Of a DNA stretch of 54,417 nt, positions 4,650 to 54,417 are shown piece by piece. This stretch comes from Serratia phage KpYy 1 41: sequence record NC_052991.1. One strand, written 5' to 3'. A model generated the notes under the pieces. It searched no databases. It was not told where the DNA came from and saw only the letters and a program-made list of their open reading frames with translations. The number at the start of each line of letters is the position of its first letter. The first letter of the stretch is position 1. The translations under genes and the position numbers were made by a program.

Positions 4650-4925
4650 ATGGGAGCCTATGCCACGCCCCAAGTAGACCAATACTGGCAGGTCAAAACG
4701 ACAGGCCAGATCATGCTGATACGCCAGCCGGAGGATCATGTGTTCAGTCCGGAATGGCACCTGAACTACCGCCGGGTACGCCTGCTGCATCACCCGGAAT
4801 CCACCTGCGTCTTTGTCGAGGACTACGGCACCTGCCTGAGCGCGCTGGATGACCCATGCGTCATCGAACTGGACTTGAAGGAGTACAAATACTGGAATCT
4901 TATTTACAGTAACCCCGACATATGA
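4650..4925 (+). CDS. hypothetical protein (91 aa)
   Basis: The internal ATG is preceded by AGGAG. The longer ORF from 4518 overlaps the upstream gene and is probably not used. Confidence 0.45.
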   Translation: MGAYATPQVDQYWQVKTTGQIMLIRQPEDHVFSPEWHLNYRRVRLLHHPESTCVFVEDYGTCLSALDDPCVIELDLKEYKYWNLIYSNPDI

Positions 4926-5091: not shown

Positions 5092-5120
5092 TCCCGTACC
5101 ATAACAAAGGAGTCATGCCG

Positions 5121-6463: not shown

Positions 6464-7560
6464 GCGAACCAAAAGTCACTTACATCACCGACGACAAAAG
6501 CCTGAAAGACATCCTCGTCATGGCTATCGAGCAGGAAGGCGGCATATCCCCGAATCATATCCTGTGCGTGGCGCATAAATACCTTCTCGATAACTGCGGC
6601 GTTCCGGAAGGGAACATCCAGTCAGTCGATGAAGTCGAGGTGGACGGTGACGCGATGCCCCGGGAGATCCGCATTCACTGGACGCGGGTTAAACGTCCGT
6701 CCGCAGTTACGCCAACGGCCGCCGAAGTGACCGAGTGGGAGCGCGAGCAGTGCCAGCAGATCCTGAGCACCATCCTCGAAACGGTACGCGCCCGCGCTAA
6801 ATACGCGAAGATTGCAGGCACCACCAGCCTCGAACTGGCCGGGAGCCTCGCCATGCAGGACATCCAGCGCCTGACCGGACAGATGACCAGCGATGGCCTG
6901 CTGACGCTGAAAGACTTCGAACCGCTGCGCCTCGCCAACATCACGCCGGGCGAACTGGCCGCACTACGAGAAGCGCTGGATACCAAGACCCGCAGTCTCG
7001 ATACGGCTGAAAGTGCTGTCACCAGCCTGCAAATCCAGTTAGCTGAGGCCCACCGCCGACACGCTGACGATAACACCGAGCACGACAGGGAGATCACAAA
7101 GCTGCGCGCCACGGTTAAGTCACTACAAAATAACGTACGGTACACCCGACAGTCCGCCTCGGTTCGCGCGGCATGGGAAGAACTGGCGGCCATCGACCTT
7201 ACGGCCGCTCGCATGGTTGTCCTGTCCGCCTTCCACACATACCCGTTACAGGCGGCGGAATACCTCGAAATCCCGCACTATCGCATTGATGCAGATCTGG
7301 TAGTCGGGCTTCCGCCACAAGTAACGTCGTTCATCCATGCGATGTGCGATAACCTGCTGCTGTCACCGCCACCGAAGACGGTCACGCAGCAAATGGTCAA
7401 AGACATGACCAACCGCCTCCACTCCCTCGCGAGCACGTCCACGTTCAGCGGTCTGCGCCGCAAATATGCAGGCGGCCATTCGCTGACAATGATGTCGGAG
7501 GACAAATACGAAGCCTTCTACCGCGAGGCCGAAGACCTGCTTAACGGAGACACGTTTTAA
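6460..7560 (+). CDS. hypothetical protein with central coiled-coil-like segment (366 aa)
   Basis: ATGA overlap with the upstream gene and no antisense competitor. Confidence 0.5.
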   Translation: MSEPKVTYITDDKSLKDILVMAIEQEGGISPNHILCVAHKYLLDNCGVPEGNIQSVDEVEVDGDAMPREIRIHWTRVKRPSAVTPTAAEVTEWEREQCQQILSTILETVRARAKYAKIAGTTSLELAGSLAMQDIQRLTGQMTSDGLLTLKDFEPLRLANITPGELAALREALDTKTRSLDTAESAVTSLQIQLAEAHRRHADDNTEHDREITKLRATVKSLQNNVRYTRQSASVRAAWEELAAIDLTAARMVVLSAFHTYPLQAAEYLEIPHYRIDADLVVGLPPQVTSFIHAMCDNLLLSPPPKTVTQQMVKDMTNRLHSLASTSTFSGLRRKYAGGHSLTMMSEDKYEAFYREAEDLLNGDTF

Positions 7561-8246
7561 TGAGCCAGTATGTTGATGCACTCAACGCCATGAAAAACAT
7601 GGACGAGCATGAACCGAAGTGGATAGGCGACCAATGGCGTACGCCGGAATGGCTGTTCCAAGCGATTAACAAGCTGTACGGGCCAATCGTGCTCGACCTG
7701 TTCACCGACGGCCAGAACGCCAAATGCGAGCGATTCTTTACGGCGGAAGATAACGCGCTGCGGCAGGATTGGGCGAAGCGTCTGGCCGAGATCCACGCCA
7801 GCGACGAATTCGACGCCAAGACCCGAGTTTGGGCCTACGCTAACCCGCCGTACAGCCAGAAGCGCGCCGGGAAAGAACCGCTTACCGGGATGACCCACAT
7901 CATGCGCAAGGCCGATGAAGAACGGGCCAAAGGCGCTGGCACCATCTGGCTGACCAAGTCCGCGACATCGGAAAGCTGGTGGCCGGACGCTATCGCCACG
8001 CGCACCATCTTCATCAAAGGGCGCATCGGGTTCGAACCGCCAGTCTGGTTCCGGCCGAAGGAAGGCAGCAGCGAAATCACGTCGGCCGGGTTCGGCGCGG
8101 CCATCCATATCTTCGACCCGGAGAGTGACCGCATCTTCCCTAACGAGTACATCGATCGCGAAACACTACTGGAAATCGGCGCACCACTGGCTAACGTATC
8201 CGTCAAGATCCGGAACCGCTGGATCAAGATGTGGGACGAGATTTAA
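7560..8246 (+). CDS. DNA N6-adenine methyltransferase, phage Dam family
   Basis: N-terminal W..PEWLF..I.KLYGPIVLDLFTD and the catalytic motif AYANPPYS (NPPY) are typical of the phage N-6-adenine methyltransferase family. Confidence 0.7.
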   Translation: MSQYVDALNAMKNMDEHEPKWIGDQWRTPEWLFQAINKLYGPIVLDLFTDGQNAKCERFFTAEDNALRQDWAKRLAEIHASDEFDAKTRVWAYANPPYSQKRAGKEPLTGMTHIMRKADEERAKGAGTIWLTKSATSESWWPDAIATRTIFIKGRIGFEPPVWFRPKEGSSEITSAGFGAAIHIFDPESDRIFPNEYIDRETLLEIGAPLANVSVKIRNRWIKMWDEI

Positions 8247-11343: not shown

Positions 11344-12057
11344 ATGGCTACGATGAAAGAACTTCACAAGATACCGCACTTCCAGTACAGCGGCGGGATC
11401 TGGTACTGCTACCGGGCGTTTGACGGCGGCGCGAAGTCATACCCGGAATACTCGCCCACCAGCCACGCCGAGCTATGGTACAGCGACAAGGCGATGGCCC
11501 GCATGGTGGAAGTGTACGGCTGGTGGAAAGCCAAAGATCCGAAGAATGCCCGCCTGACCGATGCCATGCTGCTGCGCTACGCCGGAGCCATTCGCTACGT
11601 GGAGGAAGGTAGCCGACGGAAATGGGGCATGGTCATCAAAGACCTGCGCATCTTCGCGGAGAACGTCGGTAGCCGCTTCTCGCGGGAGTATTTCGCCCGG
11701 GCAAGGAAAGAGGACGTCAAGCGCGCGAAAACGATGCGTGGCAAGGAACAGGCCCGGCTGGTGGAGACGCTAATAGCCTCGGGATACTGCCGGGTGTCGA
11801 ATAACCATCGCATCGTCAGCCGCATCGATCGGCCGGACTGGCGAGAAGTGCTGGCGCTGGAACTTTGCCCGCAAGATCCGTATGGTGCCGGGATTGACCG
11901 CACGTACGGCAGCGGCATGGCCGACTTCTATCGTCGCGGGAACAGCAAGGATAAACTGACCATTGAAGACGAAATGGTCTTCCGGCGCTTCCCGGGTTCC
12001 AGTGATGGCCCGAAGGACTTTGTACCATTATGCGAGGATTTAACCGATGCCAACTAA
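11344..12057 (+). CDS. hypothetical protein (237 aa)
   Basis: ORF in the early operon. Confidence 0.45.
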   Translation: MATMKELHKIPHFQYSGGIWYCYRAFDGGAKSYPEYSPTSHAELWYSDKAMARMVEVYGWWKAKDPKNARLTDAMLLRYAGAIRYVEEGSRRKWGMVIKDLRIFAENVGSRFSREYFARARKEDVKRAKTMRGKEQARLVETLIASGYCRVSNNHRIVSRIDRPDWREVLALELCPQDPYGAGIDRTYGSGMADFYRRGNSKDKLTIEDEMVFRRFPGSSDGPKDFVPLCEDLTDAN

Positions 12058-12946
12058 CAAAGAGCCGCTTGTCGTCAGCTTTTCCGGCGGCCAGTCGTCC
12101 GGCTTTCTTTGTGCATACCTGATCGAGAATTACGGCCACAAATATGACCTGCGTTTCGTGTTCGCCAATACAGGCCGGGAGCACGAAGAAACGCTGACCT
12201 TCGCCGACAAGGTGGATAAACACTTCGGCCTGAATCTGGTGTGGCTGGAAGGCTACGCCAGTCCGGAACACGGCGTCGGGATGCGCCACCGGGTTGTCAG
12301 TTTCGAGACGGCCGCGCGCAAGGGCGAACCGTTTGAAAGCCTGATCAGCGTCGAGGGCATCCCGAACATATCGCGCCAGAAGTGCAGCGACTACCTGAAA
12401 ACGCAGACGATTCGCCACTGGATGCGCAGCAACGGACTGGCGCGCCGTGGGTGGAGCGCGAAGACTGCCATAGGAATGCGGTCTGACGAGCCGGAACGGG
12501 CTGACCCGAACAAAGCGTCGGCCAAGAAATTCAATCTGGTGTACCCCCTTTGCCATTGGGGGAGTTTCGATAAGCAGGACGTGAACGATTATTGGGATGC
12601 CATGCCGTTCAAACTCAACATCCCGCCGCATTACGGGAACTGCCTGACCTGCTTCAAAAAGAGCAATGCAAAGCTGTACCTGATAGCCCACGAACACCCT
12701 GAATGGTTTACGTGGAACCGCGACATGGAAATCCAGTACGGCCACGTTAAAGCGGAAGACGGCCACACATGGTTCCGTGGCAAACGAAACACGGATCAGC
12801 TTATGGCCGACGCCGGACTGGAAGACCGCCAGCGCCTGCTGTACCTGACCCGCACTAACCCGGACGACGGTGATGGCTGCACATCATCATGTGAGCCGTT
12901 CCAGTCCGACCTTTTTGACGAAGACTTTGAGGAAGATGAAGTATGA
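12047..12946 (+). CDS. PAPS-reductase-like PP-loop protein with acidic DEV tail
   Basis: The N-terminal PP-loop VVSFSGGQSSG matches the SFSGGKDS-type motif of the PAPS reductase / DndC-like ATP pyrophosphatase family. It ends FDEDFEEDEV. Confidence 0.55.
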   Translation: MPTNKEPLVVSFSGGQSSGFLCAYLIENYGHKYDLRFVFANTGREHEETLTFADKVDKHFGLNLVWLEGYASPEHGVGMRHRVVSFETAARKGEPFESLISVEGIPNISRQKCSDYLKTQTIRHWMRSNGLARRGWSAKTAIGMRSDEPERADPNKASAKKFNLVYPLCHWGSFDKQDVNDYWDAMPFKLNIPPHYGNCLTCFKKSNAKLYLIAHEHPEWFTWNRDMEIQYGHVKAEDGHTWFRGKRNTDQLMADAGLEDRQRLLYLTRTNPDDGDGCTSSCEPFQSDLFDEDFEEDEV

Positions 12947-36667: not shown

Positions 36668-36961
36668 TTAGACTTCGTCTTCCGCGCCAGACTTTTTATC
36701 GTCTTTGGCGTTTTTCTTAGCACCGTCAGCCTTCTCGTCTTTTTTGGACGTTTCAGCTTTCGCCTGCTGCGCTGCGGCTTCCTGCGCTGCCTGATTTTCC
36801 ACGTCAACTTCCATCACCGGGCGGCCGATGGCATCCGGGTTGATTTTGTTGATGCTGTCCAGTTCGGCTTGTTTGAAATCGAAGATCTCGCCGATGGACG
36901 GTTTGATACGCGCGCCGTCGCGGTAAACGATGACGGTCTGGAGAACTTTACGTTTTGGCAT
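36668..36961 (-). CDS. head-tail module protein with Lys/Ala-rich acidic C-terminus ending AEDEV (FI position)
   Basis: First gene after the major capsid gene. The C-terminus KKSGAEDEV carries the shared DEV end. Confidence 0.4.
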   Translation of the reverse strand: MPKRKVLQTVIVYRDGARIKPSIGEIFDFKQAELDSINKINPDAIGRPVMEVDVENQAAQEAAAQQAKAETSKKDEKADGAKKNAKDDKKSGAEDEV

Positions 36962-41787: not shown

Positions 41788-43863
41788 CTATGCTAACGCC
41801 ATTGCGAGTTTCTCGAAACTGTATTCGGTATCTTTCGGCGCATCAATAGGTTCATCGCTCGGCGGTAAAATAACCATGCTGTTATCATCCCACTCCGCCG
41901 CCCATGATGGCGGGTTGTCCCAATCTATTTGTTCAATCCCGAGCACCCGGCCGCTGACGCAAATACCCAATAAATAATACGCCAAGTCCCACGTTTCGTT
42001 TCGGGCGTGCGCCGGGTTGTGCCAGCCTTTCTCGTCACGCGTCTCCGTACACAGTTCGGCGAACACCGCGTCGCCCATCCAGTCCGGAATGTGGTACATG
42101 CCTTTGCCCGGCTCCACGACATCCAGTCGGCCGTTCAGGCTGTCTTTCATCACGTTAGAGTTAATCATCAGCACCGGAACGTCGCCGCGTGCAATGGCCT
42201 TCTTGTCTTTCTGGTTGGAGTCCGGGAGCGCCACGCGGGTACGCGGGTTGTTCGCTTTCGGGTCGCCCTTCACCAGACAGAAGCGCCCGGTTTTCCCTTC
42301 CTTCCGCAGTTTCCGGAAGAATTCGTACGCGTTGCCAGTTACCCCAGCTTCACCGCCGGAGTCGCACGCGGTCATCTTGATCGGAAGCGAACGGCCAGAA
42401 TTATCGGACAGCGGGTACGTCTTGTTCATCACTTCGGTTTCAATGAGATCCCAATCTTCGAGGTATGCGCCCGGGTGCAGGATTTTCGGGTCGCCATCGT
42501 CATCGAGGCGGCGCGATTTCGTGATATTGAAGCGGTCGATCAGGTAGGTGTCGAACGGGTAGCCGGGGGCGACGCCATGCACCGACACTTCAAAACTATG
42601 CTTCTGCACGTCCACCGTGGCCGCCAAGAAACGCACGTCCTTCGGCACCGTCTGTTCCGGCCACTTCTCGGCGCGGGCTTTCAGCGCTTCCGGAACGCGT
42701 ACCGTCTCGATAGCCTTCGGCACGTACGGTTCGCCCATATCGTTGTTCCAGAATTTCTTCAAGGACTCTTCGGACATCGTACGCTCGTAGTCATCCATCG
42801 CATCGAGGTAGTTCAGAACCAGTTTCTGCCATGTGATGAACGCGGCCGCCGTTCCGCGAAGCCAGAAGGACGCGAATGACGAGCGCATCGGCACCCCGGC
42901 CAGTTGGCCCAATTCGTTGACATGACATCCTTCCGGCACCCACATCCCCCACAGGTTCATTTCGTATTTGTCTACCGGATCGATTTCGCACCCACAATGC
43001 GGACAGACCATGCGCACCGTCTCGGACTTTTCGAGGTTGGTAAGCGGATTGCCGTCGGCGGCTTTCGTGCTCCACTTCAAAAGCTGGAAGGTGCCTTCAA
43101 AATACTGGTCGCAGTGCGGACACGGCCATTTCCAGCGTCGGCGGTCGCCACGGTTGTATAACCCGACAATACCGTCGCATGGCGGGGCTTCGTGTGGCGT
43201 ACGCTTAATCCAGTTCGGGTCTTTAATCGGACGTGATGGCGAGGACTCGGCCGCACACATGGCAAACGACCCGAAGGTCGTCGTACGTTTTGATGCGAGG
43301 TCGAAGGCGTTACCGTCGCCGCCGATGTCGTCGTCGATACGGTCGTAGTCGGTGATGATAATTCGGCCAACCGGACGGCCCGCCAGTTCGGTCACAGACG
43401 GGTAACTCAACGTCAGGATGATCCCGGTAACGTAGTGTTTGTCGAATTTGTTGTCGGCGTCTCGGTTCTTCATCAGCATTTCGCCCACCTTCGGGCTATG
43501 GCGGTGAAGACGGTCTACACGTCGCATTGAGAAGTCACGCGCTGCCGTTGACGTCGGGCAGTAGATCATCAGATCCATCGGGTCAACTTTCACCGAATAG
43601 ACAATGCTATTCAGGATCAGCGCATCAGTTTTACCGGACTGTGCCGGGCCGACAAAAGCCATCTTGTCGTACGCCCGGCTGTTCATCATGTTCATCGGCT
43701 CGACCATGTACGGCGTCGTCGAGTTAAGCCAATCCCCGACGTATGCGCCGGGTTGGTTGACGTAGCGATACTTGGCGGCCGCGTCGGCCACCGTCATGCG
43801 CATTGGCGGCCGTAACTGCTCGGCCACCGAACTGATAATCTGCCCGATGCTCTTAAACTTCAT
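41788..43863 (-). CDS. terminase large subunit (lambda gpA family)
   Basis: 691 aa with an ATPase Walker A FVGPAQSGKT. Its size and position after a Nu1-like gene fit the lambda gpA family. Confidence 0.85.
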   Translation of the reverse strand: MKFKSIGQIISSVAEQLRPPMRMTVADAAAKYRYVNQPGAYVGDWLNSTTPYMVEPMNMMNSRAYDKMAFVGPAQSGKTDALILNSIVYSVKVDPMDLMIYCPTSTAARDFSMRRVDRLHRHSPKVGEMLMKNRDADNKFDKHYVTGIILTLSYPSVTELAGRPVGRIIITDYDRIDDDIGGDGNAFDLASKRTTTFGSFAMCAAESSPSRPIKDPNWIKRTPHEAPPCDGIVGLYNRGDRRRWKWPCPHCDQYFEGTFQLLKWSTKAADGNPLTNLEKSETVRMVCPHCGCEIDPVDKYEMNLWGMWVPEGCHVNELGQLAGVPMRSSFASFWLRGTAAAFITWQKLVLNYLDAMDDYERTMSEESLKKFWNNDMGEPYVPKAIETVRVPEALKARAEKWPEQTVPKDVRFLAATVDVQKHSFEVSVHGVAPGYPFDTYLIDRFNITKSRRLDDDGDPKILHPGAYLEDWDLIETEVMNKTYPLSDNSGRSLPIKMTACDSGGEAGVTGNAYEFFRKLRKEGKTGRFCLVKGDPKANNPRTRVALPDSNQKDKKAIARGDVPVLMINSNVMKDSLNGRLDVVEPGKGMYHIPDWMGDAVFAELCTETRDEKGWHNPAHARNETWDLAYYLLGICVSGRVLGIEQIDWDNPPSWAAEWDDNSMVILPPSDEPIDAPKDTEYSFEKLAMALA

Positions 43864-44422
43864 CGTCGTCCACCTCGTCGCCGTTGAACTTATCGATCAG
43901 CGCGCTCGACAGGTCGTTCAGCATGGCGTCAATGGATGACGTGATGACCTGACGTTGCGGCTCGCTGAGTCCGGCCTGACGCGCCAGCGTGTCGGGAATG
44001 AGCAACATCGACATGCGGAGCACCTTCACTGCCTCGCCGAAGTGCTCGATCACCTTCTCGGTTTCCCACAGGTTGCCCGCTTTGATGTCGAAGTCCTGCT
44101 TTGCGCGCTGCCCGGCCCAAAACTCTTTCGACAACTCCTTCGGCAGATCCTTGAAATTCATGCGGCGCAGGTACGTCTCGACATCGTACAGCGGCTTAAC
44201 GAGGTACGGGGCCACTTCGTGAACCGCGTAGATCGGGTACCCACCGCGCTCGCCGACTGGCGGGACGTCCATGATTTTCGGCGTGATGTCCCGGCGCTCC
44301 ATGCGGAACAGCTTTGCCAGTTGCGTGATGTTGCAGCCCTGAAAAATCATCGCTTCGGTGTCGGCGTCCGGCGCATTAGAGCGGCGATTCCGGGTTGCCA
44401 GTGGCGCATTACTCTTCGTCAT
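43853..44422 (-). CDS. terminase small subunit (Nu1-like) with appended acidic DEV tail
   Basis: An N-terminal HTH-like segment NITQLAKLF...GGYPIYAVHEVAPYL parallels lambda Nu1 KKQLADIFG...GNEVLYDSAAVIKWY. The C-terminus is NGDEVDDDEV. Confidence 0.65.
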   Translation of the reverse strand: MTKSNAPLATRNRRSNAPDADTEAMIFQGCNITQLAKLFRMERRDITPKIMDVPPVGERGGYPIYAVHEVAPYLVKPLYDVETYLRRMNFKDLPKELSKEFWAGQRAKQDFDIKAGNLWETEKVIEHFGEAVKVLRMSMLLIPDTLARQAGLSEPQRQVITSSIDAMLNDLSSALIDKFNGDEVDDDEV

Positions 44423-45968
44423 CCCATACCCCTTTATTTTTCGATTTCTTGCGGCGTTTGATGCGCCCTTTGATGCGTTCGAGCAGTTCGAAGAACGCGT
44501 CCTGCACGTCCTCTTTGTCGTTCAGCGCCTGAATTACGACGTCGTCCGCTGTCTCGGCCAGAAGCCCGTTCGGTGTTCGCAGCATGGCTTTGAACTGGTA
44601 GATCGTAACCGGGTACTTCTGGCCCTGACGGTGAAGTCGGCCGTTGAATTGCAGGAAGCGTTCGAGTGACCACGGATTGTCGATGTAGACAATCACATGG
44701 CCGCCGTGCTGGAGGTTTAAACCGTGTCCCGCCGATTGAGGGTGCGCGGCCAGCAGGCGAATCTTTCCGGCGTTCCACTTCTTGATGCACTTGCCGTCAT
44801 CGTCCATGACCACCAGACCTTTAAACCGCTCTTTCAGTCGTTCGAGGGTCGGCTTGAAGTGATAGGCGATCAGCACGTTTTTATCTGCCAGCGTGGTTTC
44901 CAGCAATTCTTCCAGCGCATCGAATTTCAGGTCGTGCAGCCTGTACGTGTCCTTCTGCTTGATGACCTTGTCGTCTTCCGTGATGCCGACGATTTTCGTG
45001 TCGTAGATGAAGCCCGAGCACATCTGCAATAACTTCGACTGCAAGGATGCCGCCTGCTCCGCCTCGATCACAATTGGGTCATCCAGATGTTCGTCGAAAT
45101 CTTCCGGCATAATCTCGACAAGGCTTTCTTCCTCCATCATGCGGTACCGCTCCGCCGTCTCCCCGTCTAACTCGACCGGGACAGGAACGAAATTTGGTTC
45201 GTGCATGTCAAGGTAGTCTTCCGCTTTCATGACTAAACATATATCAGAAATCTTCCGAATAATCTCGTCTTCCGCGCCGGGGCGCAGTTTCCACTTGAAA
45301 TTGTATCGGTTCTGCGTGAAGTAGTTGTCCTGATAACCCCCGATGGTGGAGCCAAAGCGCTCGCCTTCGTCCAGCAGGTATATTTGCGAGAAGATACCCA
45401 TGTACCCCTCGGCCGCAGGCGTGGCCGTCAACTCGACAATGCGTTTGATATACTTGCGCACCCGGCGCAGCATTTTGAAGCGCTGCGAGGTGTGGGATTT
45501 GAACATGCTCGACTCGTCCAGCACCACGGCATCGAACGGCCATTTCGTTTTGAAATGCTCGCACAGCCACGCGATGTTATCGACGCTGACCGTGTAAAAA
45601 TGGCAGTCCTTGTTCGCGGCCGCCGCTCGCTCTTTGGCGTTCCCGGCGATAATCGACATCTTGTAGAAGCACAGGTGGCCCCACTCGTCGAATTCAGTCG
45701 GCCACCCGGTACGGGCCACTCGCTTCGGCGCGACGACGAGCACTTTGTTAATTTCGCCGTCCGCGATCAGGTCGAGCATGGCCGTACCTGTCATGACGGT
45801 TTTACCCAATCCGAGGTCTACGAACATGCCGCAGTACGGATGGTCTTTGATGAACTGGACGCCTTCGTCCTGATAGTCGTGCATGTCGCTGCGGTTCAGT
45901 TTAACCGTCCGCAGGCAGTACGCGAGCGCTCTACTCAAAGGCGATAATGTAGTTTTTAAAGTCTGCAA
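44409..45968 (-). CDS. SNF2-family DEAD-like helicase
   Basis: Helicase motif I GLGKT, motif II VVLDESSMFK, and a helicase-C region HPQSAGHGLNLQ. The true start may be an internal Met. Confidence 0.8.
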   Translation of the reverse strand: MQTLKTTLSPLSRALAYCLRTVKLNRSDMHDYQDEGVQFIKDHPYCGMFVDLGLGKTVMTGTAMLDLIADGEINKVLVVAPKRVARTGWPTEFDEWGHLCFYKMSIIAGNAKERAAAANKDCHFYTVSVDNIAWLCEHFKTKWPFDAVVLDESSMFKSHTSQRFKMLRRVRKYIKRIVELTATPAAEGYMGIFSQIYLLDEGERFGSTIGGYQDNYFTQNRYNFKWKLRPGAEDEIIRKISDICLVMKAEDYLDMHEPNFVPVPVELDGETAERYRMMEEESLVEIMPEDFDEHLDDPIVIEAEQAASLQSKLLQMCSGFIYDTKIVGITEDDKVIKQKDTYRLHDLKFDALEELLETTLADKNVLIAYHFKPTLERLKERFKGLVVMDDDGKCIKKWNAGKIRLLAAHPQSAGHGLNLQHGGHVIVYIDNPWSLERFLQFNGRLHRQGQKYPVTIYQFKAMLRTPNGLLAETADDVVIQALNDKEDVQDAFFELLERIKGRIKRRKKSKNKGVWDDEE

Positions 45969-48325: not shown

Positions 48326-48922
48326 TTAAACTTCGTCTTCCCAATCTTCGTCTTCATCCCACGCATCAGACGTGTCAACGCGACCTTCACCGAACGGTTC
48401 GTCGTCTTTGCGCTTGAGAACGGAAATCAGGTTGGCGTTGACGCGTTTGCCGAATTTGTTTTCCTGCGACCACGGACGGATGACGACAGACACCCAACAA
48501 CCACCGTAGATCTCTTCCAGAATTTCGGAAGAAGTAGTCAACTCTTCGCGCTCGATGTTATACACATCCGGGCGTTTGCTTTCGCGCGCTGAGATAACCC
48601 ACATCCCTTCGCATTCCGGTTTGTCCGGGAAATCGGTGTCGCCGTCTTTGATGAACAACATGGACGGGGCAACTTTCAGCGCGCCTGTCTTGTGGTTCTT
48701 CTTGGTGACTTCGATCTGCTCACGGATGATTTTCTCGATCTCGCCGTGGCTTTCTTTCGGCATCAAAAGCGTCAGCGAGTATTTCGGCTCGCCGCCGTCT
48801 TCGCCGCCGTACGGCTTATCGAGGTGCGGGTAAGAAGCACGTACGTTAGAAATCTTGATGTGACCAGATTTGTACAGCACGCCATTCTTGACTTTCTTCG
48901 CAGGGACTAATTTCTCGGCCAT
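48326..48922 (-). CDS. DUF2815 ssDNA-binding (T7 gp2.5-like) protein with acidic DEV tail
   Basis: 198 aa, with SYPHLDKPYGGEDGGEPKYSLTLLMPK near the N-terminus, typical of DUF2815. It is partnered with DUF2800 and PolA, and ends DEDEDWEDEV. Confidence 0.6.
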   Translation of the reverse strand: MAEKLVPAKKVKNGVLYKSGHIKISNVRASYPHLDKPYGGEDGGEPKYSLTLLMPKESHGEIEKIIREQIEVTKKNHKTGALKVAPSMLFIKDGDTDFPDKPECEGMWVISARESKRPDVYNIEREELTTSSEILEEIYGGCWVSVVIRPWSQENKFGKRVNANLISVLKRKDDEPFGEGRVDTSDAWDEDEDWEDEV

Positions 48923-48934
48923 CTTAATATCCTC

Positions 48935-48985
48935 GGTTTACTGTTTTACGGGTTTACTTTCTACGGTTTTACGGGTTTACACTTC
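48935..48985 (-). promoter_or_regulatory. repetitive A-rich leader (GTAAAC-like units) upstream of the SSB-like gene
   Basis: On the mRNA strand the leader reads GUAAACCCGUAAAACCGUAGAAAGUAAACCCGUAAAACAGUAAACCGAGGAU-AUG, a 16-nt unit repeated. Confidence 0.45.
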
Positions 48986-50314
48986 GTCATCATCTTCGTC
49001 GTCCCACGCCCCGGAATATTTGCCGTCCAGTGGTGGCCGCTTATCGGTCAGCGGTGCCAGTGTCGGCTTGCCTTCCGGCTTGTAGACTATCCCCGCGATG
49101 ATGTTCGGCGCGCCAGCCCGGGACACGCCCAATTCATCCCTAAGCACTTCTTCCATCTGCGCCGGAGTACGCAGTTTGCGCTCGATGTATTTGTCCTCTT
49201 CGATATCGAGGAACTTGAACAGCGCGATCGCATCTTTCTCGTTGGCGAATTTGCGGTTTGTCCGCGACTCCACCAGCTTTTGACCCGGTACCTTCTCGCC
49301 GTTCATTGCGCGGCGTTCCAGTTCGAAGTCAAGGCGCGAGAACCAGTTTTCGACCACCTTGCGGTATGGCAGGATCTTCGCCATCTGCTCGGTTGTCAGG
49401 TTCCCGAACTGCGCACGCCGGAATTTATACTCCTGCGCCAGCGCATCACGCAATACTGACATTTCTTCCTCCCCGAATTCGGATTCAAGGAATTCCACAT
49501 CCCCGCCCACCGCGCATTCCATCATGTACGCTATCGCTGCGCAGTTATGTGCTGCCCGGCAAAAGCGACACCCTTTCAGGGATGCGCGGCGCGGCGCGGT
49601 AAGGCTCCATGCCGCTGCAATCCGCTCCCGGGCGTACTCCGCAAACTCCAACAACTCGTCAATCGTGATTTCCCACGTATCGAAGTGGTCGAGTCGCGGC
49701 TGCGCAATCCGGATGATGATACGGTCAAACTCGTATTCATCCGCGAAAGCGCGGTACGCACCGTACGCGTAAAGTAGCGCCTGCGGGTTCCCTTCCGCGA
49801 AAACCTGAACGCCAGTACCGTATTTCAGGTCGGTCACGATCAGGGTGCGGTCACGGATGATGATGTTATCCGCCGTTCCGCCCTGTGCGACAAACTCTTC
49901 CGGTTCTTCGTCAGGTTCATCCGGGTTCGCTCGCGGCATCAGGTCGGTGAACCATACCCTGATTTCCGTGAACATTTCACCCTCTTCAAATCGGCACCAG
50001 TCCACATACTCCTGAACGTAGTCGATCATTGAACGCGTGATGGGGATGTCATGACTGACATCGCCTTCCGTGATCGTCTCGACGGTACCTATTAAATGGG
50101 TTGGCCGGACATCCGTTCGCAGCCATTGTTCGGCGATTCCGTGGGCCACCGTTCCTTCCGCCGCCTCGTAGATGGTTTCGTCATGCTCGAAAAGCCCTGC
50201 TATCAGGCTTCCGGAACATGCCATCCAACGCGCTGACGCCGAAGGCGCGAAGATTGAGTGACCGCCACCGCCGAATTCCCGCATGATGCGGACTAACAGC
50301 GACTTACTACTCAT
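48977..50314 (-). CDS. DUF2800 PD-(D/E)XK nuclease with acidic DEV tail
   Basis: The N-terminus HSIFAPSASARWMACSGS matches the DUF2800 hallmark (SxxxRWxxCPgS). It ends AWDDEDDDEV. Confidence 0.65.
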   Translation of the reverse strand: MSSKSLLVRIMREFGGGGHSIFAPSASARWMACSGSLIAGLFEHDETIYEAAEGTVAHGIAEQWLRTDVRPTHLIGTVETITEGDVSHDIPITRSMIDYVQEYVDWCRFEEGEMFTEIRVWFTDLMPRANPDEPDEEPEEFVAQGGTADNIIIRDRTLIVTDLKYGTGVQVFAEGNPQALLYAYGAYRAFADEYEFDRIIIRIAQPRLDHFDTWEITIDELLEFAEYARERIAAAWSLTAPRRASLKGCRFCRAAHNCAAIAYMMECAVGGDVEFLESEFGEEEMSVLRDALAQEYKFRRAQFGNLTTEQMAKILPYRKVVENWFSRLDFELERRAMNGEKVPGQKLVESRTNRKFANEKDAIALFKFLDIEEDKYIERKLRTPAQMEEVLRDELGVSRAGAPNIIAGIVYKPEGKPTLAPLTDKRPPLDGKYSGAWDDEDDDEV

Positions 50315-50636
50315 TCGGATACGCCTTTATCGCATTGAGGAATCGGTGTTGGCCGACTCGCTCAATCGTCGCTACTAATGCCCTAGCGCCTGCCCCGCTG
50401 TAATTATTGCGGCCTGCGTTAAAGCGAGTCTTCGCCACGTCGTCCCACCAGACGTCACATACTCGATAGCCAGATGCAGCATGGGTTACGAGCAGCGGCG
50501 CTTCGTGTTTCGAGACAGGGGAAGTAACTCTGAACAGCACATCGCGATCACCGATCTGGAAACGAAACTCCGCCCACGTACGCGCGAGAACTGCGCCGCC
50601 GGATGTTGCTACGTTGGTGAAAGTAATGCTGGTCAC
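50307..50636 (-). CDS. hypothetical protein (109 aa)
   Basis: ORF between a strong terminator and the nuclease gene. Confidence 0.45.
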   Translation of the reverse strand: MTSITFTNVATSGGAVLARTWAEFRFQIGDRDVLFRVTSPVSKHEAPLLVTHAASGYRVCDVWWDDVAKTRFNAGRNNYSGAGARALVATIERVGQHRFLNAIKAYPNE

Positions 50637-50654
50637 AATTGCCTCTCCGTTGGT

Positions 50655-50684
50655 TGTGAAAAACGGCCCCCCGAAGGGAGCCGA
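50655..50684 (-). terminator. strong intrinsic terminator with UUCG tetraloop
   Basis: On the minus strand CGGCUCCC-UUCG-GGGGGCCG is followed by UUUUU. Confidence 0.6.
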
Positions 50685-50698
50685 TGCGGGGCGAAAGA

Positions 50699-51103
50699 TT
50701 AAACGTCGTCTTCTTCGCCGTTACCGCCTTCATCTTTTTCAGCCAGTTTGGCTTCGCACATTTCGACGATCTCGTCGAAGTGTTCTTCCTTCGCTTCCGC
50801 GACTTTCGCGAGGCCGAAGTGAGCGGTGATTTTCTTGGCTTCCGGCGCGCCGAACGCGTCTTTAACCGCAACGACAGCCGCGACTACTTCGTCTTTGGTG
50901 TGTTTCGGCTTGACCGCTTTGGTTTCAGTTTTGGATTTAGCGCCGCCTTTAGCACCGCCTTTGGCGGTTGTTTTTTCGGTGGTTTCGCTGCCAGCGTCAG
51001 CAGAAGTGTTCACCGCGCCGCCTTTCAGTGCTGCCAGAACGCCTTCCAGCAGGGTGTTGGTTTTTTGTTGTTCAGCCAGCAGTTGTTCGAAGATACCAGA
51101 CAT
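50699..51103 (-). CDS. hypothetical Ala/Lys-rich protein ending EEDDV
   Basis: First gene of the minus-strand replication operon. It has a low-complexity KGGAKGGAK centre and an acidic C-terminus. Confidence 0.5.
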   Translation of the reverse strand: MSGIFEQLLAEQQKTNTLLEGVLAALKGGAVNTSADAGSETTEKTTAKGGAKGGAKSKTETKAVKPKHTKDEVVAAVVAVKDAFGAPEAKKITAHFGLAKVAEAKEEHFDEIVEMCEAKLAEKDEGGNGEEDDV

Positions 51104-51155
51104 AATTTTCTACTCCGTTAAGTGTTTAAAAGGTCGTGTCGTGTTGACGGGATGA

Positions 51156-51185
51156 AGTATGGCCCAAATGCCGAATCGCTGTCAA
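51156..51185 (-). promoter_or_regulatory. minus-strand promoter (TTGACA-N18-CATACT) of the replication operon
   Basis: Reverse complement of tgtcaa at about 51180-51185 and of agtatg at about 51156-51161. Confidence 0.4.
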
Positions 51186-51274
51186 ACACTTTTTTCAAAA
51201 TTTTTTATTCGGGTACCGCAAGCCCTTTGTTTTCCGGACATAAAGCGCCTTTGGTACCCGGATAAATGGCCAAC

Positions 51275-51303
51275 TTGACAGATGTCAAGCCCGGATATAA
51301 TAT
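51275..51303 (+). promoter_or_regulatory. plus-strand promoter (TTGACA ... TATAAT) with overlapping inverted repeat
   Basis: The sequence reads TTGACAgaTGTCAAgcccggaTATAATAT. The -35 element is part of the palindrome TTGACA-ga-TGTCAA. A second inverted repeat, CGGGTACC...GGTACCCG, lies 20-60 bp upstream. Confidence 0.5.
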
Positions 51304-51345
51304 CCGCAAATCTATAACACGCGCACATTACGCGAGGGCATCACT

Positions 51346-51627
51346 ATGCGATTTCCAGATTGGGCTTTAAACGACGACCGTATGCGGGTCAAATTTCTTA
51401 TGATGCAAGCGGCTTTGGAGGTAGACCCGAATGCCAGAATGGCCGAACTGGCGAAGGCAGCGAAGATCAGTTACCCGACATTGTTATGGGCTGTGCAGAA
51501 CAACGTAACGAGCAGCGTGGCCGAGAAAGTTTGCAAAGCCGTCCCTCACTGCGGCATCCGTCCGCATTGGCTGACTAACCCTTCATGGATCAAAACGGAC
51601 AGCGAAACAGGGGAAATCCTTGAATGA
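51346..51627 (+). CDS. small HTH DNA-binding protein (93 aa)
   Basis: The segment ELAKAAKISYPTLLWAVQN is helix-turn-helix-like. It is the first gene after the divergent promoter region. Confidence 0.45.
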   Translation: MRFPDWALNDDRMRVKFLMMQAALEVDPNARMAELAKAAKISYPTLLWAVQNNVTSSVAEKVCKAVPHCGIRPHWLTNPSWIKTDSETGEILE

Positions 51628-54209
51628 ACTACTGGCAAGAGTACGGCGAAACGCTTTGGGGGAATGGGTACACCATCGTACCTATCTACGCCCCGGACGC
51701 CGATAAGAAGGGCGCGGGCAAACGCCCCATCGGCGAAGATTGGGAAAGAACAATCAATGATAAGGAGCAGATCCAGCGTTGGGCGAAACGCTATACGAAT
51801 AACGGCATCGGGATTCTGACCAAATACACCCCGGCGGTTGACATCGACGTTTACGATGAAGACGCCGTGGCGCACATGGCTGACTGGATCGCCGAGAACG
51901 TCGGTGCAGCGCCATGTCGTATCGGCCGGGAGCCGAAGAAACTCTACCTGTACCGAACCGAAAACCCGTTCGCCAAAGTTAAGTCCGGAGTATGGGAAGA
52001 CGATTTCGGTCAGCGCCATGCCGTTGAAATCCTCGCCGACGGACAGCAGTTCGTTGCGTATGGTATTCACCCGGACACCAAGCGGGACTATTACTGGATT
52101 GACGGCGAAAACCCGCTGAACAATGCCGCCGACCTTGACCTCGAAGAGATCAGCCTCGATACCGCTCGCGAGATCGCCGCCGAATTCGACCGATACGCGA
52201 AGGACTTGGGCTGGACAATGGTCAAACGGCCAATGAACGGTTATGAGTCTATCGGTTCGGCCGACGATGACGATTGGGCCGCGCTGTCTGACGTCAAAAA
52301 GTGGGACGGCACGTACGATGAACTGCGCGACATCGTCCTGAAATACCCGAACCCGGAAGATTACGAGAACTACATCACCGTACTGGCCGCGCTGCAAATT
52401 TCCTGCCGCGATCAGGACGAGGCGAAGGCCATTGCCCGCGAATGGGCCATGCAGGCACACAACTTCGACGAAGGTGATTTCGAATACAAGTGGGATAAGG
52501 GCTTCGCGCACAACTCGACTCGACTGATCACGCTCGGCACCATCATCAAAGAAGTGCAGGACATCGAGAAAGCCGAGCAGGAAGAACGCGCCATCGAGTA
52601 CCGCGAGGCTTTCGCCGAGTGTACCGAGGCGAATGACTGGAATGCGTGGGCCGAATCATTCAAAAAAGCGCAGATTTTCGGGCTTACCCGCAAGGCAATC
52701 GTGCAGATTGCGGCAGAAGCATACCGCAGGATCAACAACTTCCGCCTCACTGCGGGCGATAAAAAGGAGCTTTTGGGCTTCGATTATGGGTCGAAAGAGA
52801 CACCGCAGTGGCTGAAAAACTTCGTTTTCTCGAAGGCAAATGACAGTTTTATCGAAAAATCGACTGGCGATTACATCACAAAAGGCGCTTTCGACGTCGC
52901 TTTCGCGAAAAAGTGCGTGTTTGAGGAAGAATCATTCAAGCCTGTCCACTATGCGTCGGTAGTCCGCCCGGTTCCTATCGTTTGGGACGCGATGTACTAC
53001 CCGGCGATGCACGGTGACATGCCGGAATCGGTGTGGAAGCCGAAAGAGGGAGTGATCGGGCCGGAATTCTTTATTGACGACCGTGGGCGTACGTGGCTGA
53101 ACTCTTTTGACCCTGAATCCATTCCGGAGGCCGCGACTGACCTTTCTCCGTACGACAAAAAGGCGCTGGAGATCATCAAAGACTTCTTCATCGTGCTTTT
53201 CCCGAACGAGAAGGAACGCCGCTATGTTCTGGACTGGATGGCGTGGGTTATTCAGCACCCAACGAAACGCATCAACTACTCGCTTCTGATCCGTGGTGCG
53301 CATGGTTCCGGTAAAACGACTCTCGGCATCATCATGTCGCGGATGCTCGGCGCGTCGAACGTGGGCTATGTGTCAAACACCGTGATGAATGGACGTTTCA
53401 GCGATTGGGCCGAAGGTCACATCCTGAAAATCGTGGAAGAGATCTACGACAAAGGCGATCGGTACAGTGCGGTGGAACGCCAGAAGGAATTCATTACAAA
53501 CGACCGCTTCCAGATTGAACCAAAGGGCCGCAAGCCGAAGGAAGTCGTGAACACCAGCAGCAAAATGATGTTCACCAACCACTTCAACGCATTGCCACTC
53601 GATGAAAACCAGCGTCGTTATCTGGTGGTGTCCACGCAGGCCGAAAATCATCTGGACATGGAGCGGGTTTACGGGTCGAAGACTGAACGCGCGCGCTTCT
53701 TCAAAAACGTGTACCGGGCAATCGAAAACCACGCACCTGCTATCAAAAAGTGGTTCCTCGATTGGGAGATCGGAAAGGATTTCGATGCCAAAGGACACGC
53801 ACCGCAGGACACCGAAGCATTCGCGGTCATGGCCGACGCGTCAGACGATGGCGTGGAAGGCGCAATCGCACAAATGCTTCGTGACGGAACGACGCCGGGC
53901 GTACACCGCGACGTCATCTTCGTGCCGTCCCTGAAAAACGCATTCCTCGAAATGACAGACGTGGAAATGCCGAAGACGAACCGCCTGAAAAACATGCTTA
54001 TGGAATTGGGATTCAAGCCGGGCGGCGTGGTCAAATTTGGTGGCGAATCTGGCCGCGTTTATGTCCGGAAGCGGGTCAAAGGGGCATTCGATGACGCGGG
54101 GAAACTTAACTCGTCATGGGTGCAGACTACGTTAAAACGTCATGACGCAGAAGTCGAAAAACTGGTCGGCAAAAAGCCAGACCCGTTTGACGATGAAGAC
54201 GAAGTTTAG
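51624..54209 (+). CDS. DNA primase-helicase (prim-pol / D5-like with P-loop NTPase), acidic DEV tail
   Basis: 861 aa. It has an N-terminal bifunctional primase-polymerase-like region, a Walker A IRGAHGSGKTTL, and a Walker B-like LVVS. It ends DPFDDEDEV. Confidence 0.75.
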   Translation: MNYWQEYGETLWGNGYTIVPIYAPDADKKGAGKRPIGEDWERTINDKEQIQRWAKRYTNNGIGILTKYTPAVDIDVYDEDAVAHMADWIAENVGAAPCRIGREPKKLYLYRTENPFAKVKSGVWEDDFGQRHAVEILADGQQFVAYGIHPDTKRDYYWIDGENPLNNAADLDLEEISLDTAREIAAEFDRYAKDLGWTMVKRPMNGYESIGSADDDDWAALSDVKKWDGTYDELRDIVLKYPNPEDYENYITVLAALQISCRDQDEAKAIAREWAMQAHNFDEGDFEYKWDKGFAHNSTRLITLGTIIKEVQDIEKAEQEERAIEYREAFAECTEANDWNAWAESFKKAQIFGLTRKAIVQIAAEAYRRINNFRLTAGDKKELLGFDYGSKETPQWLKNFVFSKANDSFIEKSTGDYITKGAFDVAFAKKCVFEEESFKPVHYASVVRPVPIVWDAMYYPAMHGDMPESVWKPKEGVIGPEFFIDDRGRTWLNSFDPESIPEAATDLSPYDKKALEIIKDFFIVLFPNEKERRYVLDWMAWVIQHPTKRINYSLLIRGAHGSGKTTLGIIMSRMLGASNVGYVSNTVMNGRFSDWAEGHILKIVEEIYDKGDRYSAVERQKEFITNDRFQIEPKGRKPKEVVNTSSKMMFTNHFNALPLDENQRRYLVVSTQAENHLDMERVYGSKTERARFFKNVYRAIENHAPAIKKWFLDWEIGKDFDAKGHAPQDTEAFAVMADASDDGVEGAIAQMLRDGTTPGVHRDVIFVPSLKNAFLEMTDVEMPKTNRLKNMLMELGFKPGGVVKFGGESGRVYVRKRVKGAFDDAGKLNSSWVQTTLKRHDAEVEKLVGKKPDPFDDEDEV

Positions 54210-54215
54210 TCGATA

Positions 54216-54246
54216 AAAAGGCCGGGAAATCCGGCCTTACTTTTTC
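54216..54246 (+). terminator. rho-independent terminator after the primase gene
   Basis: AAGGCCGG-gaaat-CCGGCCTT followed by TTTTT. Confidence 0.65.
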
Positions 54247-54417
54247 ACACTTCATCATTTTCGGCGTCTGAATAATTCAGCAATTTACACCAGTTTTCGT
54301 CATCACTATCCCCCACCCGGAACGTCACCGATTTACCTAAGCAAACGATCATGTGAAGTATTTTATCCGTGGAGATTGAGACGTCTTTTTTACGGTAAAA
54401 AGTGCTGATATAGGATT

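Follow-up and report, generated by a model that had tools for sequence, protein, structure and literature searches.

An acidic C-terminal tip shared by unrelated proteins of Serratia phage KpYy 1 41 and its Casjensviridae relatives: a candidate docking tag with lineage dialects

A recurrent C-terminal tip in a Chivirus genome

The question raised by the genome of Serratia phage KpYy 1 41 is why proteins devoted to replication, DNA modification and packaging should all end in nearly the same residues. The window analysed here, that is, the whole stretch of 54,417 nucleotides in record NC_052991.1 (about 5 kb of the genome lie outside it), is that of a Chivirus, a member of the Salmonella phage Chi group. 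The first-pass annotation had listed eight proteins ending in D-E-V-stop and a ninth ending in EEDDV, and the translations bear out all nine ends. Two carriers had been missed, namely an HTH gene truncated at the right end of the window (NDEV) and a Dam-family methyltransferase (WDEI). D-E-V-COOH is found on nine proteins, encoded by eight complete ORFs and the edge-cut gene, and two further ends, DDV and DEI, are of the same type (Table 1).

Among the 432 six-frame ORFs of at least 40 residues in the window, DEV is the most frequent C-terminal tripeptide (n = 8) and no spurious ORF ends in it, all eight being real genes. Only 0.018 such ends would be expected among 63 genes from the bulk amino-acid composition, or 0.047 from that of the last ten residues (Poisson P for at least eight, 3e-19 to 5e-16), and internal DEV tripeptides number only nine in 17,700 residues. 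The consensus in this phage can be written as [DE]2-6-D-E-V-COOH. The last 12 residues include two to eight acidic ones (four to eight on every tagged protein except for the variant Dam tail), and the tails lie outside the folded domains, past the ends of the Pfam domains.

The carriers had been described as unrelated in fold, which holds at the family level, given their distinct Pfam matches (DUF7609, RdgC, PAPS_reduct, DUF7443, DUF1441, Enc34_ssDNA-bd, DUF2800/PD-(D/E)XK and Prim-Pol+PriCT_2+DUF5906). Two of the earlier assignments call for a small correction: the supposed head-tail protein is a DUF7443 protein, whose gene comes directly after that of the major capsid protein within a lambda-like gpA/gpW head module, corresponding to the position of lambda gpFI, and the terminase small subunit (TerS) belongs to DUF1441. 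The Dam-family methyltransferase, for its part, carries the label 'PAPS reductase' in public annotations.

Table 1. Proteins of the window with tag-type or related C-terminal tails, and the ends of their orthologues
Protein	Position	Strand	Tail (position)	Basis	Ends of orthologues or homologues
DUF7609 early protein	1822-2193	+	SDDDEV (codons 2173-2190, stop 2191-2193)	translation, Pfam DUF7609	DDDEV in Siskin, DDDEV in Enc34, EDDEV in Salado; without tag in E21, JC01, AVP3 and BUCT551
RdgC-family protein	3336-4409	+	DEDDDEV (4386-4406)	translation, Pfam	DEV in four genomes, DDM in E21, DDI in JC01, EEL in AVP3, GEI in BUCT551
Dam-family N6-adenine methyltransferase	7560-8246	+	WDEI, variant (8235-8243)	Pfam PF05869	track the genome's dialect: DEI, DEI, DEV, DDL, EDL, EEL, EEI
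PAPS_reduct-domain protein, accessory cassette	12047-12946	+	EEDEV (12929-12943)	translation, Pfam	
DUF7443 protein	36668-36961	-	AEDEV (DEV, 36671-36679)	translation, Pfam	DEV, DEV, EEV, DDL, DDI, EDL, DEI; SGL in BcepNazgul
TerS (DUF1441)	43853-44422	-	GDEVDDDEV (DEV, 43856-43864)	translation, Pfam	acidic-acidic-V/I/L in 101/107 homologues; DDDPAAGL in BcepNazgul
SNF2-type helicase	44409-45968	-	GVWDDEE, acidic, without terminal aliphatic residue in the Serratia phage KpYy 1 41 lineage		full tag in L/I/GL genomes (DEL, DML, DEI, DDI, EEL, AGL)
gp2.5-type SSB (Enc34_ssDNA-bd / DUF2815)	48326-48922	-	AWDEDEDWEDEV (DEV, 48329-48337)	translation, Pfam	terminal L, I, V or M in 120/120 homologues
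DUF2800 PD-(D/E)XK nuclease	48977-50314	-	AWDDEDDDEV (DEV, 48980-48988)	translation, Pfam	by genome dialect: DEV, DDL, DEI, DGL
gp04-type protein (PHROG 7721)	50699-51103	-	EEDDV (50702-50710)	translation; no Pfam match	tagged in 7/7 tag-bearing genomes: DDV, EEV, DDV, DDM, DDF, EDL, DDI
Prim-Pol / D5-type primase-helicase	51624-54209	+	PFDDEDEV (DEV, 54198-54206)	translation, Pfam	by lineage: DEV, EEL, EEI, DDL, CGL
gp01-type HTH protein, C-terminal part, cut by window edge	54245-54417	-	SDAENDEV (DEV, 54248-54256; stop 54245-54247)		full-length orthologue: Siskin gp01

Selection on the peptide and lineage dialects

The tag is carried by the same set of orthologues across the Casjensviridae genera sampled, and the tip is kept in Enc34 and in Klebsiella phage Salado with different upstream linkers. 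Its codons vary (GAA or GAG; GTT, GTG, GTC or GTA), as do the stop codons that follow (TAA, TGA or TAG), and a tagged gene may overlap the one that comes after it, be separated from it by a gap or be followed by a terminator. The persistence of the tip next to diverged linkers, together with this synonymous variation, indicates that selection acts on the protein and not on the DNA; at the level of sequence comparison, it demonstrates purifying selection on the tag as a peptide.

These data bear on the notion that GAC-GAA-GTT-TAA is a DNA or RNA motif, or a segment homogenised by recombination or alike by chance, the tail of the protein arising only as a consequence. In its favor, Val is encoded by GTT in five of the eight DEV tails and in the DDV tail, compared with 19% genome-wide, and one cassette junction falls exactly within a tail-coding segment; the PAPS_reduct cassette is missing in Siskin, where its tail-coding end persists, fused to gp43. 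However, the peptide stays constant across genes and relatives that differ in codons, stops and downstream contexts, and genomes of the L, I and GL dialects described below specify a single residue by up to six codons each. Gene conversion is likewise not the source, because the terminal residue shared within one genome is written with different codons in different genes. The codon data largely refute an explanation at the nucleic-acid level, which can be considered extremely improbable.

The last residue of the tag differs between lineages. The phages Chi and Enc34 and the Klebsiella phages use [DE][DE]V, while [DE][DE]L is found on 10 of the 75 proteins of Aeromonas phage AVP3, [DE][DE]I on 10 of the 74 of Aeromonas phage BUCT551, and -GL on 11 of the 71 of BcepNazgul, four of them reading DPAAGL. 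Between AVP3 and BUCT551, most of whose orthologues are 50-68% identical, all ten tagged pairs (27-62% identity) differ as L versus I. When the ends of the primase, gp04, nuclease, SSB, helicase and TerS were compared in 80 viral contigs, entire sets agreed within single genomes: six of six ended in L in L032 and in L033, six of six in I in L038, and five of five in -GL in L059. Moreover, proteins outside the replication module matched the dialect of their genome in AVP3, BUCT551 and BcepNazgul, as the dialect idea predicts.

Across 56 dereplicated genomes, unrelated proteins of the same genome agreed in their last residue with a frequency of 0.60, whereas orthologues from different genomes agreed in just 0.14-0.28. 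Column shuffling gave 0.198 +/- 0.02, and none of 5000 shuffles matched the observed value, a test in which phylogenetic non-independence remains. What carries the argument is how often tag class has switched independently, at least four or five times on a simple NJ tree of the nuclease. The constraint is not uniform, as evidenced by the mixed endings of E21 (I/L/M) and JC01 (F/I/L/W) and by the near-absence of tags in Salvo. The tag motif, the orthologue set bearing it across the family and its concerted change within genomes are, nevertheless, a matter of observation. Close relatives do not lack the tail, which is present on the same orthologues, and the earlier proposal of a portable, lineage-specific docking tag gains support from these alignments: orthologues keep the tail, linkers and codons drift, and the last residue switches in concert among V, L, I and GL. 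Such switching of the same residue on a whole set of proteins, lineage by lineage, points to one shared, co-evolving docking site, which must be regarded as putative.

The C-terminal sequence of a protein is a classic determinant of its proteolysis in bacteria, and ClpXP fails to recognise ssrA-type tags when the C-terminus is acidic. The position of the motif, exactly C-terminal on a defined cohort of proteins, would be that of a degron or anti-degron addressed to a protease or adaptor of the host or the phage, setting the lifetime of the cohort. Protection, however, would require acidity alone and not a conserved, co-varying aliphatic end, the cohort combines early genes with two genes of late modules (TerS and gp19), and lineage dialects are not expected from host proteases. 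A stability signal is, consequently, very unlikely.

Acidic tails of T7, Enc34 and bacterial SSB

The closest parallel is found in phage T7, where gp2.5 (the SSB) and gp4 (the primase-helicase) use acidic C-terminal tails to bind basic patches of the DNA polymerase; that of gp2.5 anchors to the front basic patch, and its C-terminal Phe is essential (PMC12339929). Tails of this docking type are restricted in T7 to gp2.5 and gp4 (2 of 56 proteins), with the tips ...EDGDF and ...NDTDF. In both systems, the C-terminal segment is flexible and acidic, its last residue is hydrophobic and bears the free carboxylate, and at least two unrelated proteins share one tip; the pairing of the SSB with the primase-helicase is also common to both (here WEDEV and DEDEV), and it recurs in the L, I and GL dialects. 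In contrast, there are 10-11 carriers here among some 73 proteins, including TerS, a head-module protein, RdgC, a methyltransferase and an HTH regulator, and where T7 has Phe, they end in an aliphatic residue (V, I, L or GL). Lineage dialects with concerted switching are not described for T7 and, also unlike the T7 case, the polymerase can here be replaced by an unrelated protein with no change in the tags (L039 versus L044). Although the principle of the docking tag is known from T7, the shared site presumed here is not known to have been described.

Enc34 ORF6 is the direct orthologue of the SSB of the window, with 88% identity, and its crystal shows disorder over the final 11 residues (PMC5686142). 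In agreement, residues 181-198 of the SSB have an AF2 pLDDT of 56-63, compared with about 95 for the core, so that the tail is predicted to be flexible; the AF2 model of the SSB gives no docking signal.

Acidic tails that fold back have been described for T7 gp2.5, T4 gp32 and Hfq, and the tails considered here could similarly be autoinhibitory DNA mimics, each lying against the surface with which its own protein binds DNA and tuning affinity or specificity without any common receptor. That nearly all carriers bind or process DNA, as judged from Pfam, is in keeping with this possibility. So are the passages on the tail in the Enc34 ORF6 study, where the protein without its 21 C-terminal residues binds dsDNA in addition to ssDNA, and where the tail occupies the groove of a neighbouring molecule in the crystal (PMC5686142). 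In those passages the acidic tail is noted, as here, on the SSB, and is seen to tune DNA specificity, but it is handled as a property of that protein and the tips of others are not mentioned. Mimicry would account for the acidity, although not for an identical last residue on about ten unrelated folds per genome, as unrelated DNA-binding surfaces need no common terminal residue, and it leaves the joint switching of that residue between lineages unexplained. As the sole explanation it appears rather unlikely, while intramolecular mimicry may coexist with docking.

Bacterial SSBs carry a C-terminal consensus, D-D-D-I-P-F (SSB-Ct), which serves to recruit proteins in DNA metabolism, many partners having pockets that recognise the one SSB tail. 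Both SSB-Ct and the phage tag place acidic residues before a C-terminal hydrophobic residue on a disordered tail. The topology, however, is inverted, since here the tail sits on many proteins, implying that it has a single reader or very few, and the Chi clade ends in D-E-V with no Pro-Phe. Tips resembling SSB-Ct occur only in the distant outgroup contigs L082-L085, where the primase ends in DDFPF or DSMPF and the SSB in DDDMAF, close to the bacterial consensus. These tips, together with the overall form of the motif, suit a host receptor, in that the tails could imitate a host ligand such as the SSB-Ct tip and recruit or titrate SSB-interacting proteins, a chaperone or another hub. Dialect and host, nonetheless, do not go together: Aeromonas is infected by AVP3 (L) as well as by BUCT551 (I), and phages of Enterobacterales have different ends (V in Chi, I/L/M in E21, F/I/L/W in JC01), while host hub proteins are strongly conserved within the hosts concerned. 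TerS and the head-module protein are, in addition, improbable clients of a host replication and repair interactome. We regard a host-factor receptor as decidedly unlikely.

A third precedent is that of the clamp ligands, such as the beta-clamp motif QL[SD]LF, the T4 gp45 ligands and the PIP box of PCNA partners (QxxΦxxFF). There, too, many DNA enzymes (polymerase, nuclease, ligase, methyltransferase, helicase) share one short terminal peptide directed to one hub, but the tails described here are strongly acidic and match neither QL[SD]LF nor QxxΦxxFF, and no clamp-family domain or homologue was detected among the 40 window proteins scanned.

Candidate receptors and a possible address code

On this analysis, the tails of about ten proteins probably constitute a docking motif like that of T7 gp2.5 and gp4, an address code for a single shared receptor site that is most likely encoded by the phage. 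Both the binding by the tails and the uniqueness of the receptor are what we infer from the pattern. The motif would consist of a flexible acidic run and one aliphatic residue with its free alpha-carboxylate, and the same site would read all carriers. In this way the tags would gather the primase-helicase, the SSB, the recombination nuclease, RdgC and the helicase at one place on the replicating phage DNA, together with the DNA methyltransferase or other modification enzymes, a regulator, TerS and the packaging-module protein. The T7 principle, by which an acidic tail lands on a basic patch and cannot do without its C-terminal hydrophobic residue, would thereby apply to about ten proteins instead of two and would reach beyond replication to packaging and modification, and the three processes could be functionally coupled through the tails.

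As for the receptor, its co-evolution with the tags makes a phage protein the most likely candidate. The first-pass annotation had named the polymerase, the SSB-like protein and a host factor as possible hubs; the last is disfavoured by the two Aeromonas phages with different dialects, and the SSB-like protein is kept. The case for the polymerase, which in the window is a divergent family-A enzyme without a close solved structure, is weakened: L039 and L044 are near-identical phages that differ by the polymerase swap mentioned above, and the constancy of their tags argues against a receptor specific to PolA, even if such a site could still be accommodated because relatives of the donor polymerase are also of the L class. 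D-E-V-COOH formally fits the class III PDZ form, [DE]-x-Φ-COOH, the TPR-type ligand considered beside it being EEVD-COOH; the Pfam scan of 40 window proteins gave no PDZ, TPR or clamp-like domain, with many phage proteins having no family match and about 5 kb falling outside the window. A scan for columns of Pol, SSB, TerL, helicase, nuclease, primase or TerS associated with tag class yielded hits at noise level only. In rough order, the replicative polymerase would come first among the candidates, followed by the gp2.5-type SSB with its OB groove, then by TerL or VRR-NUC, and lastly by a protein as yet uncharacterised.

A broader proposal, which we advance tentatively and hold to be somewhat doubtful, is that the Casjensviridae possess an address code in which one phage-encoded receptor, by reading the acidic-aliphatic tip, assembles the proteins of replication, recombination, DNA modification and packaging in a single DNA factory, and that co-evolving dialects (DEV, D[DE]L, D[DE]I and DPAAGL) limit gene exchange. 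If so, dialects would render imported genes or co-infecting relatives functionally incompatible, and this incompatibility would block or filter mosaic exchange. New cassettes would, in that event, pick up the tag of their new genome where recombination joins them to it, the junction between gp43 and the PAPS-like gene being an example.

Carriers of the acidic C-terminal tag

Chi-like Salmonella siphoviruses such as ST-W23 and Siskin (Casjensviridae, genus Chivirus) are 98-99% identical to the window, and the gene set was obtained by carrying over the Siskin annotation by BLASTP, which gave 63 genes for the window; the full reference genome has 73. Translation bore out exactly the D-E-V-stop ends that the first-pass annotation had ascribed to eight ORFs, as well as the EEDDV end of a ninth protein. 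All members of that list were real, but two had been missed: an HTH gene truncated at the right window boundary and a Dam-family methyltransferase with a variant tag. With these two added, the complete genome contains nine DEV ends plus the DDV and DEI variants, that is, 11 of 73 proteins. When all 432 six-frame ORFs of at least 40 aa were surveyed blind, the most frequent C-terminal tripeptide was DEV (8 cases), and it was confined to real genes. Bulk composition predicts 0.018 such ends, and the residue usage in the last ten positions predicts 0.047 (Poisson P 3e-19 to 5e-16). The shared tail is therefore confirmed and extended.

Ten of the 11 tagged proteins are non-structural, and just one falls within the run of 28 genes for virion structure and lysis that starts with TerL and ends with the spanins (Fisher P = 0.04). 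Pfam identified the carriers as a Prim-Pol/PriCT_2/DUF5906 primase-helicase, a DUF2800 PD-(D/E)XK nuclease, an Enc34-type (gp2.5-like) SSB, RdgC, a PAPS_reduct-domain protein, a Dam methyltransferase, a DUF1441 small terminase (TerS), DUF7609 and DUF7443, while gp04 had no family match in Pfam. The tails fall outside, and C-terminal to, the Pfam domain boundaries. The DUF7443 gene is the immediate 3' neighbour of the major capsid gene. The head module is lambda-like, with gpW and a TerL of the gpA type; in lambda, the corresponding slot is occupied by gpFI.

Window features discussed in the text, with their C-terminal ends or tail elements
Feature	Position	Strand	End or element
hyp57, immediately 3' of RdgC	4412-4645	+	untagged
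Conserved protein	4650-4925	+	...NPDI
Conserved protein	5115-5861	+	...GEVEI
Dam-family methyltransferase	7560-8246	+	WDEI (variant tag)
gp43/PAPS_reduct junction region	12020-12946		...CEDLTDAN (gp43)
PAPS_reduct-domain gene	12047-12946		...DFEEDEV
TerS	43853-44422	-	
TerS C-terminus	43853-43882	-	...NGDEVDDDEV
Helicase	44409-45968	-	GVWDDEE-stop
SSB	48326-48922	-	DAWDED...
Nuclease	48977-50314	-	GAWDDE...
gp04	50699-51103		EEDDV
Primase	51624-54209		
HTH gene (stop codon)	54245-54247	-	...AENDEV
GTT codons for terminal Val	2188-2190, 4404-4406, 43856-43858, 48329-48331, 50702-50704, 54204-54206		

Several details of these genes deserve mention. The Dam-family gene belongs to the N6-adenine methyltransferase family PF05869 (E = 5e-30), its orthologues bear the public annotation 'phosphoadenosine phosphosulfate reductase', and the true PAPS_reduct-domain gene of the window is the one so named in the table. 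TerS has an extra internal DEV five residues ahead of the terminal one, its relatives reading KEADDDEV or AEEEDDEV at the tail, which might point to a minor duplication or a lengthening of the tail. The nuclease, SSB and helicase tails include a second, aromatic element, [GA][AV]-W-D-[DE]-E, right after which the nucleases of phages E21 and JC01 stop (VWDD, AWDDE); it may represent an older or separate motif. Finally, the conserved proteins at 5115-5861 (orthologues EDVEI, EDIEV, DEESI) and 4650-4925 (orthologues NPDI, NPDV) have tag-like ends that are weaker but retained across genera, and could belong to the tag set in degenerate form.

Lineage dialects among relatives

Orthologues were tabulated across complete genomes of stepwise lower relatedness. 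In Enc34 (genus Enchivirus) and Klebsiella phage Salado, [DE][DE]V is found on the same orthologues, with the adjacent upstream residues diverged and the codons synonymously changed. In E. coli phage E21, whose SSB is 48% identical, the SSB, gp04, RdgC, Dam and post-capsid proteins end in DD[I/L/M], the same set in Cronobacter phage JC01 ends in DDF, DDI, DEI or EDL, and Xylella phage Salvo has tag remnants only. T7, analysed identically, carries such tails only on gp2.5 (...EDGDF) and gp4 (...NDTDF), 2 of 56 proteins.

The replication module with 10-kb flanks was then fetched via an SSB alignment from 80 viral contigs, and the C-termini of the primase, gp04, nuclease, SSB, helicase and TerS were read. 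A homologue search with TerS reached Casjensviridae-like sequences only. Contigs of the Chi, Enc34 and Klebsiella clade end in V, two contigs (L032, L033) in L on 6/6 proteins, Aeromonas phage BUCT551 (L038) in I on 6/6, another contig (L045) in I on 5/5 detected, and Burkholderia phage BcepNazgul (L059) in -GL on 5/5 detected. By contrast with these tagged proteins, the family-A polymerase (...FYRKD) and TerL (...LAxxLA) were never tagged in the 80 contigs, and their C-termini behave like those of ordinary orthologues.

In a neighbour-joining tree of the nuclease, the I groups are nested within L groups; at least four or five independent dialect switches are implied. After dereplication at 85% nuclease identity (56 genomes), the last residue matched in 60% of the pairs of unrelated proteins from the same genome, against 19.8 +/- 2% upon column shuffling (0/5000 shuffles reached the observed value), and orthologues across genomes agreed in just 14-28% of pairs. 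Since the shuffle leaves shared ancestry in, the weight of the argument rests on the repeated, parallel switches.

Common tips also occur in distant DUF2815-SSB modules outside Casjensviridae (IMG/VR contigs L082-L085, L074-L076, L079, L086 and L089), where the SSB shares its tip with the primase (-PF/-AF in L082-L085, -LLD/-MLD in L074-L076) or the nuclease (-PLA in L086), examples being DDFPF/DDDMAF, NLLD/SMLD, NPLA/DPLA and NLDEF/NVDDY. Modules of this kind may in general have a tip shared among their replication proteins.

A protein-level signal beyond the replication module

If the tails have a common reader, tagged proteins beyond the fetched module should match the dialect of their genome, and this is what was found in three phages. 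In Aeromonas phage AVP3, 10 of 75 proteins end in [DE][DE]L (primase, the protein at the gp04 position, nuclease, SSB, helicase, TerS, post-capsid protein, N6-adenine methyltransferase, exoribonuclease and RdgC), and in BUCT551 a corresponding set (10/74) ends in [DE][DE]I, its RdgC in ...GEI. Most orthologues of these two phages are 50-68% identical and the tagged pairs 27-62%, and in each of the ten tagged pairs AVP3 has L where BUCT551 has I, an HNH endonuclease pair among them (WDGL vs WDGI). BcepNazgul has -GL on 11 of 71 proteins, for about 0.6 expected from a rough estimate based on G and L frequencies (P ~5e-11). Four of these tails (gp19, RusA resolvase, gp35 and TerS) have DPAAGL in common, the remaining seven belonging to a ParB-like protein, gp31, the post-capsid protein, helicase, SSB, nuclease and primase.

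A nucleic-acid motif, such as the ribosome-binding site of the following gene, was considered as the source of the conservation and rejected in view of codon, stop and context variation. Specifically, a Shine-Dalgarno sequence embedded in the coding region (GAG-GT) does not fit, because GAA predominates in the tails, with GAG in fewer, and the downstream contexts differ (overlapping start, 3-nt gap, long gap or terminator); the stop codons vary as well (TAA, TGA, TAG). Gene conversion is ruled out by the different codons used within one genome for the same last residue: TTA, CTG, CTA, CTT, CTC or TTG in L-dialect genomes and ATA, ATC or ATT in I-dialect genomes, while the four DPAAGL tails are unlike at 5/6 codons. 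The concordance within a genome thus reflects convergence on an amino acid and not copied DNA. GTT encodes the terminal Val of 5/8 DEV tails, and that of the DDV tail as well, for a genome-wide share of 19% of Val codons, an excess that could reflect a last-codon or termination-context preference, or common ancestry of orthologous tails.

The gp43 region differs between the window and Siskin. In the window, gp43 is followed by an overlapping 299-aa PAPS_reduct gene; Siskin (L001, NC_048727, 42560-42660) lacks it and has an unrelated 94-aa gene instead, its gp43 running on in frame into a remnant, ...FEGDEV-stop, that shares 84% identity with the last part of the PAPS-like gene of the window. 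This corresponds to a cassette exchange with the junction inside the tail-coding segment, so that, judging from the two arrangements, recombination can pass the tag to another protein.

The concerted dialects and the prediction test support the core of the docking-tag proposal made in the first-pass annotation. We favour, with some reserve, a short linear motif for docking, in which an acidic run is closed by an aliphatic residue at the C-terminus and which is recognised by one shared, probably phage-encoded and co-evolving reader site; the tails would bring phage DNA-transaction proteins to a common location. The tails may in addition act intramolecularly as DNA mimics, a role that cannot account for concerted switching. 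The sequence-level features defining the gp2.5 and gp4 tails of T7 are present here, with an aliphatic residue replacing Phe. The differences from T7 lie in scale (about ten carriers versus two), in scope, which extends to TerS, a packaging-module protein, a methyltransferase, RdgC, a resolvase and ParB-like proteins, and in the existence of lineage dialects. In the searchable literature, whose coverage is incomplete, no earlier account of a tag shared by several proteins of Chi-like phages was found; it may have been noticed elsewhere.

Candidate readers of the tag

If one receptor reads every tail, a peptide of 3-6 residues would organise the greater part of the DNA transactions in a family with numerous phages of Salmonella, Klebsiella, Aeromonas, Burkholderia and Xylella. 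The tag would offer a direct experimental handle on the physical coupling of replication, recombination, methylation and packaging, and on the co-evolution of viral short linear motifs with their readers, with four natural dialects for finding the hub. The dialects also suggest a hitherto unrecognised constraint on phage mosaicism, in that an imported gene may require the local tag to work. As a simple annotation rule, the tag singles out proteins such as gp04, DUF7609 and DUF7443 as belonging to the network of DNA transactions.

A host factor, one of the hubs initially suggested, is disfavoured, as AVP3 (L) and BUCT551 (I) share the host genus Aeromonas; the endings of enterobacterial phages are V, I/L/M or F/I/L. 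The SSB groove is the sole surface in the family for which tail contact has experimental evidence, in the crystal packing of Enc34 ORF6, whose DNA specificity also changes upon tail deletion (PMC5686142). Cis docking of the tip was sought with AF2 on the full-length SSB (63-sequence alignment), and the tail was flexible (pLDDT 56-63).

An association scan for columns separating I-class from L-class genomes over three independent I groups gave 1-11 scattered columns each for the polymerase, SSB, TerL, helicase, nuclease, primase and TerS, none of them enriched, and among 40 window proteins scanned with Pfam and PHROG, none had a PDZ, TPR, clamp-like or other known peptide-reader domain. hyp57, a basic, untagged 77-aa protein (pI 9.7, PHROG 7200, no Pfam match), is kept in seven tag-bearing genomes; it was dropped as a universal hub because it is absent from BcepNazgul (and from Salvo) and only three homologues could be retrieved for modelling.

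The precedent of the T7 tails makes the polymerase a candidate receptor (PMC12339929). Sequence matches of the window polymerase in the PDB were short stretches of Pol theta only, and the basic patches of T7 could not be mapped. Two IMG/VR contigs, L039 and L044, are almost one phage (primase 99.9%, nuclease 99.1%, SSB 97.1% and helicase 99.0% identical), yet the polymerase slot holds a family-A polymerase in L044 (10700-12760) and an unrelated protein of ~675 aa in L039 (10675-12702). As this swap left the tags identical, a PolA-specific site is weakened, but the receptor may still be a polymerase. The proteins most closely related to the incoming one belong to other L-class phages. Its family, with no match in Pfam or the PDB, fills the polymerase slot in about 20 other DUF2800-DUF2815 modules and is possibly an unrecognised family of replicative polymerases.
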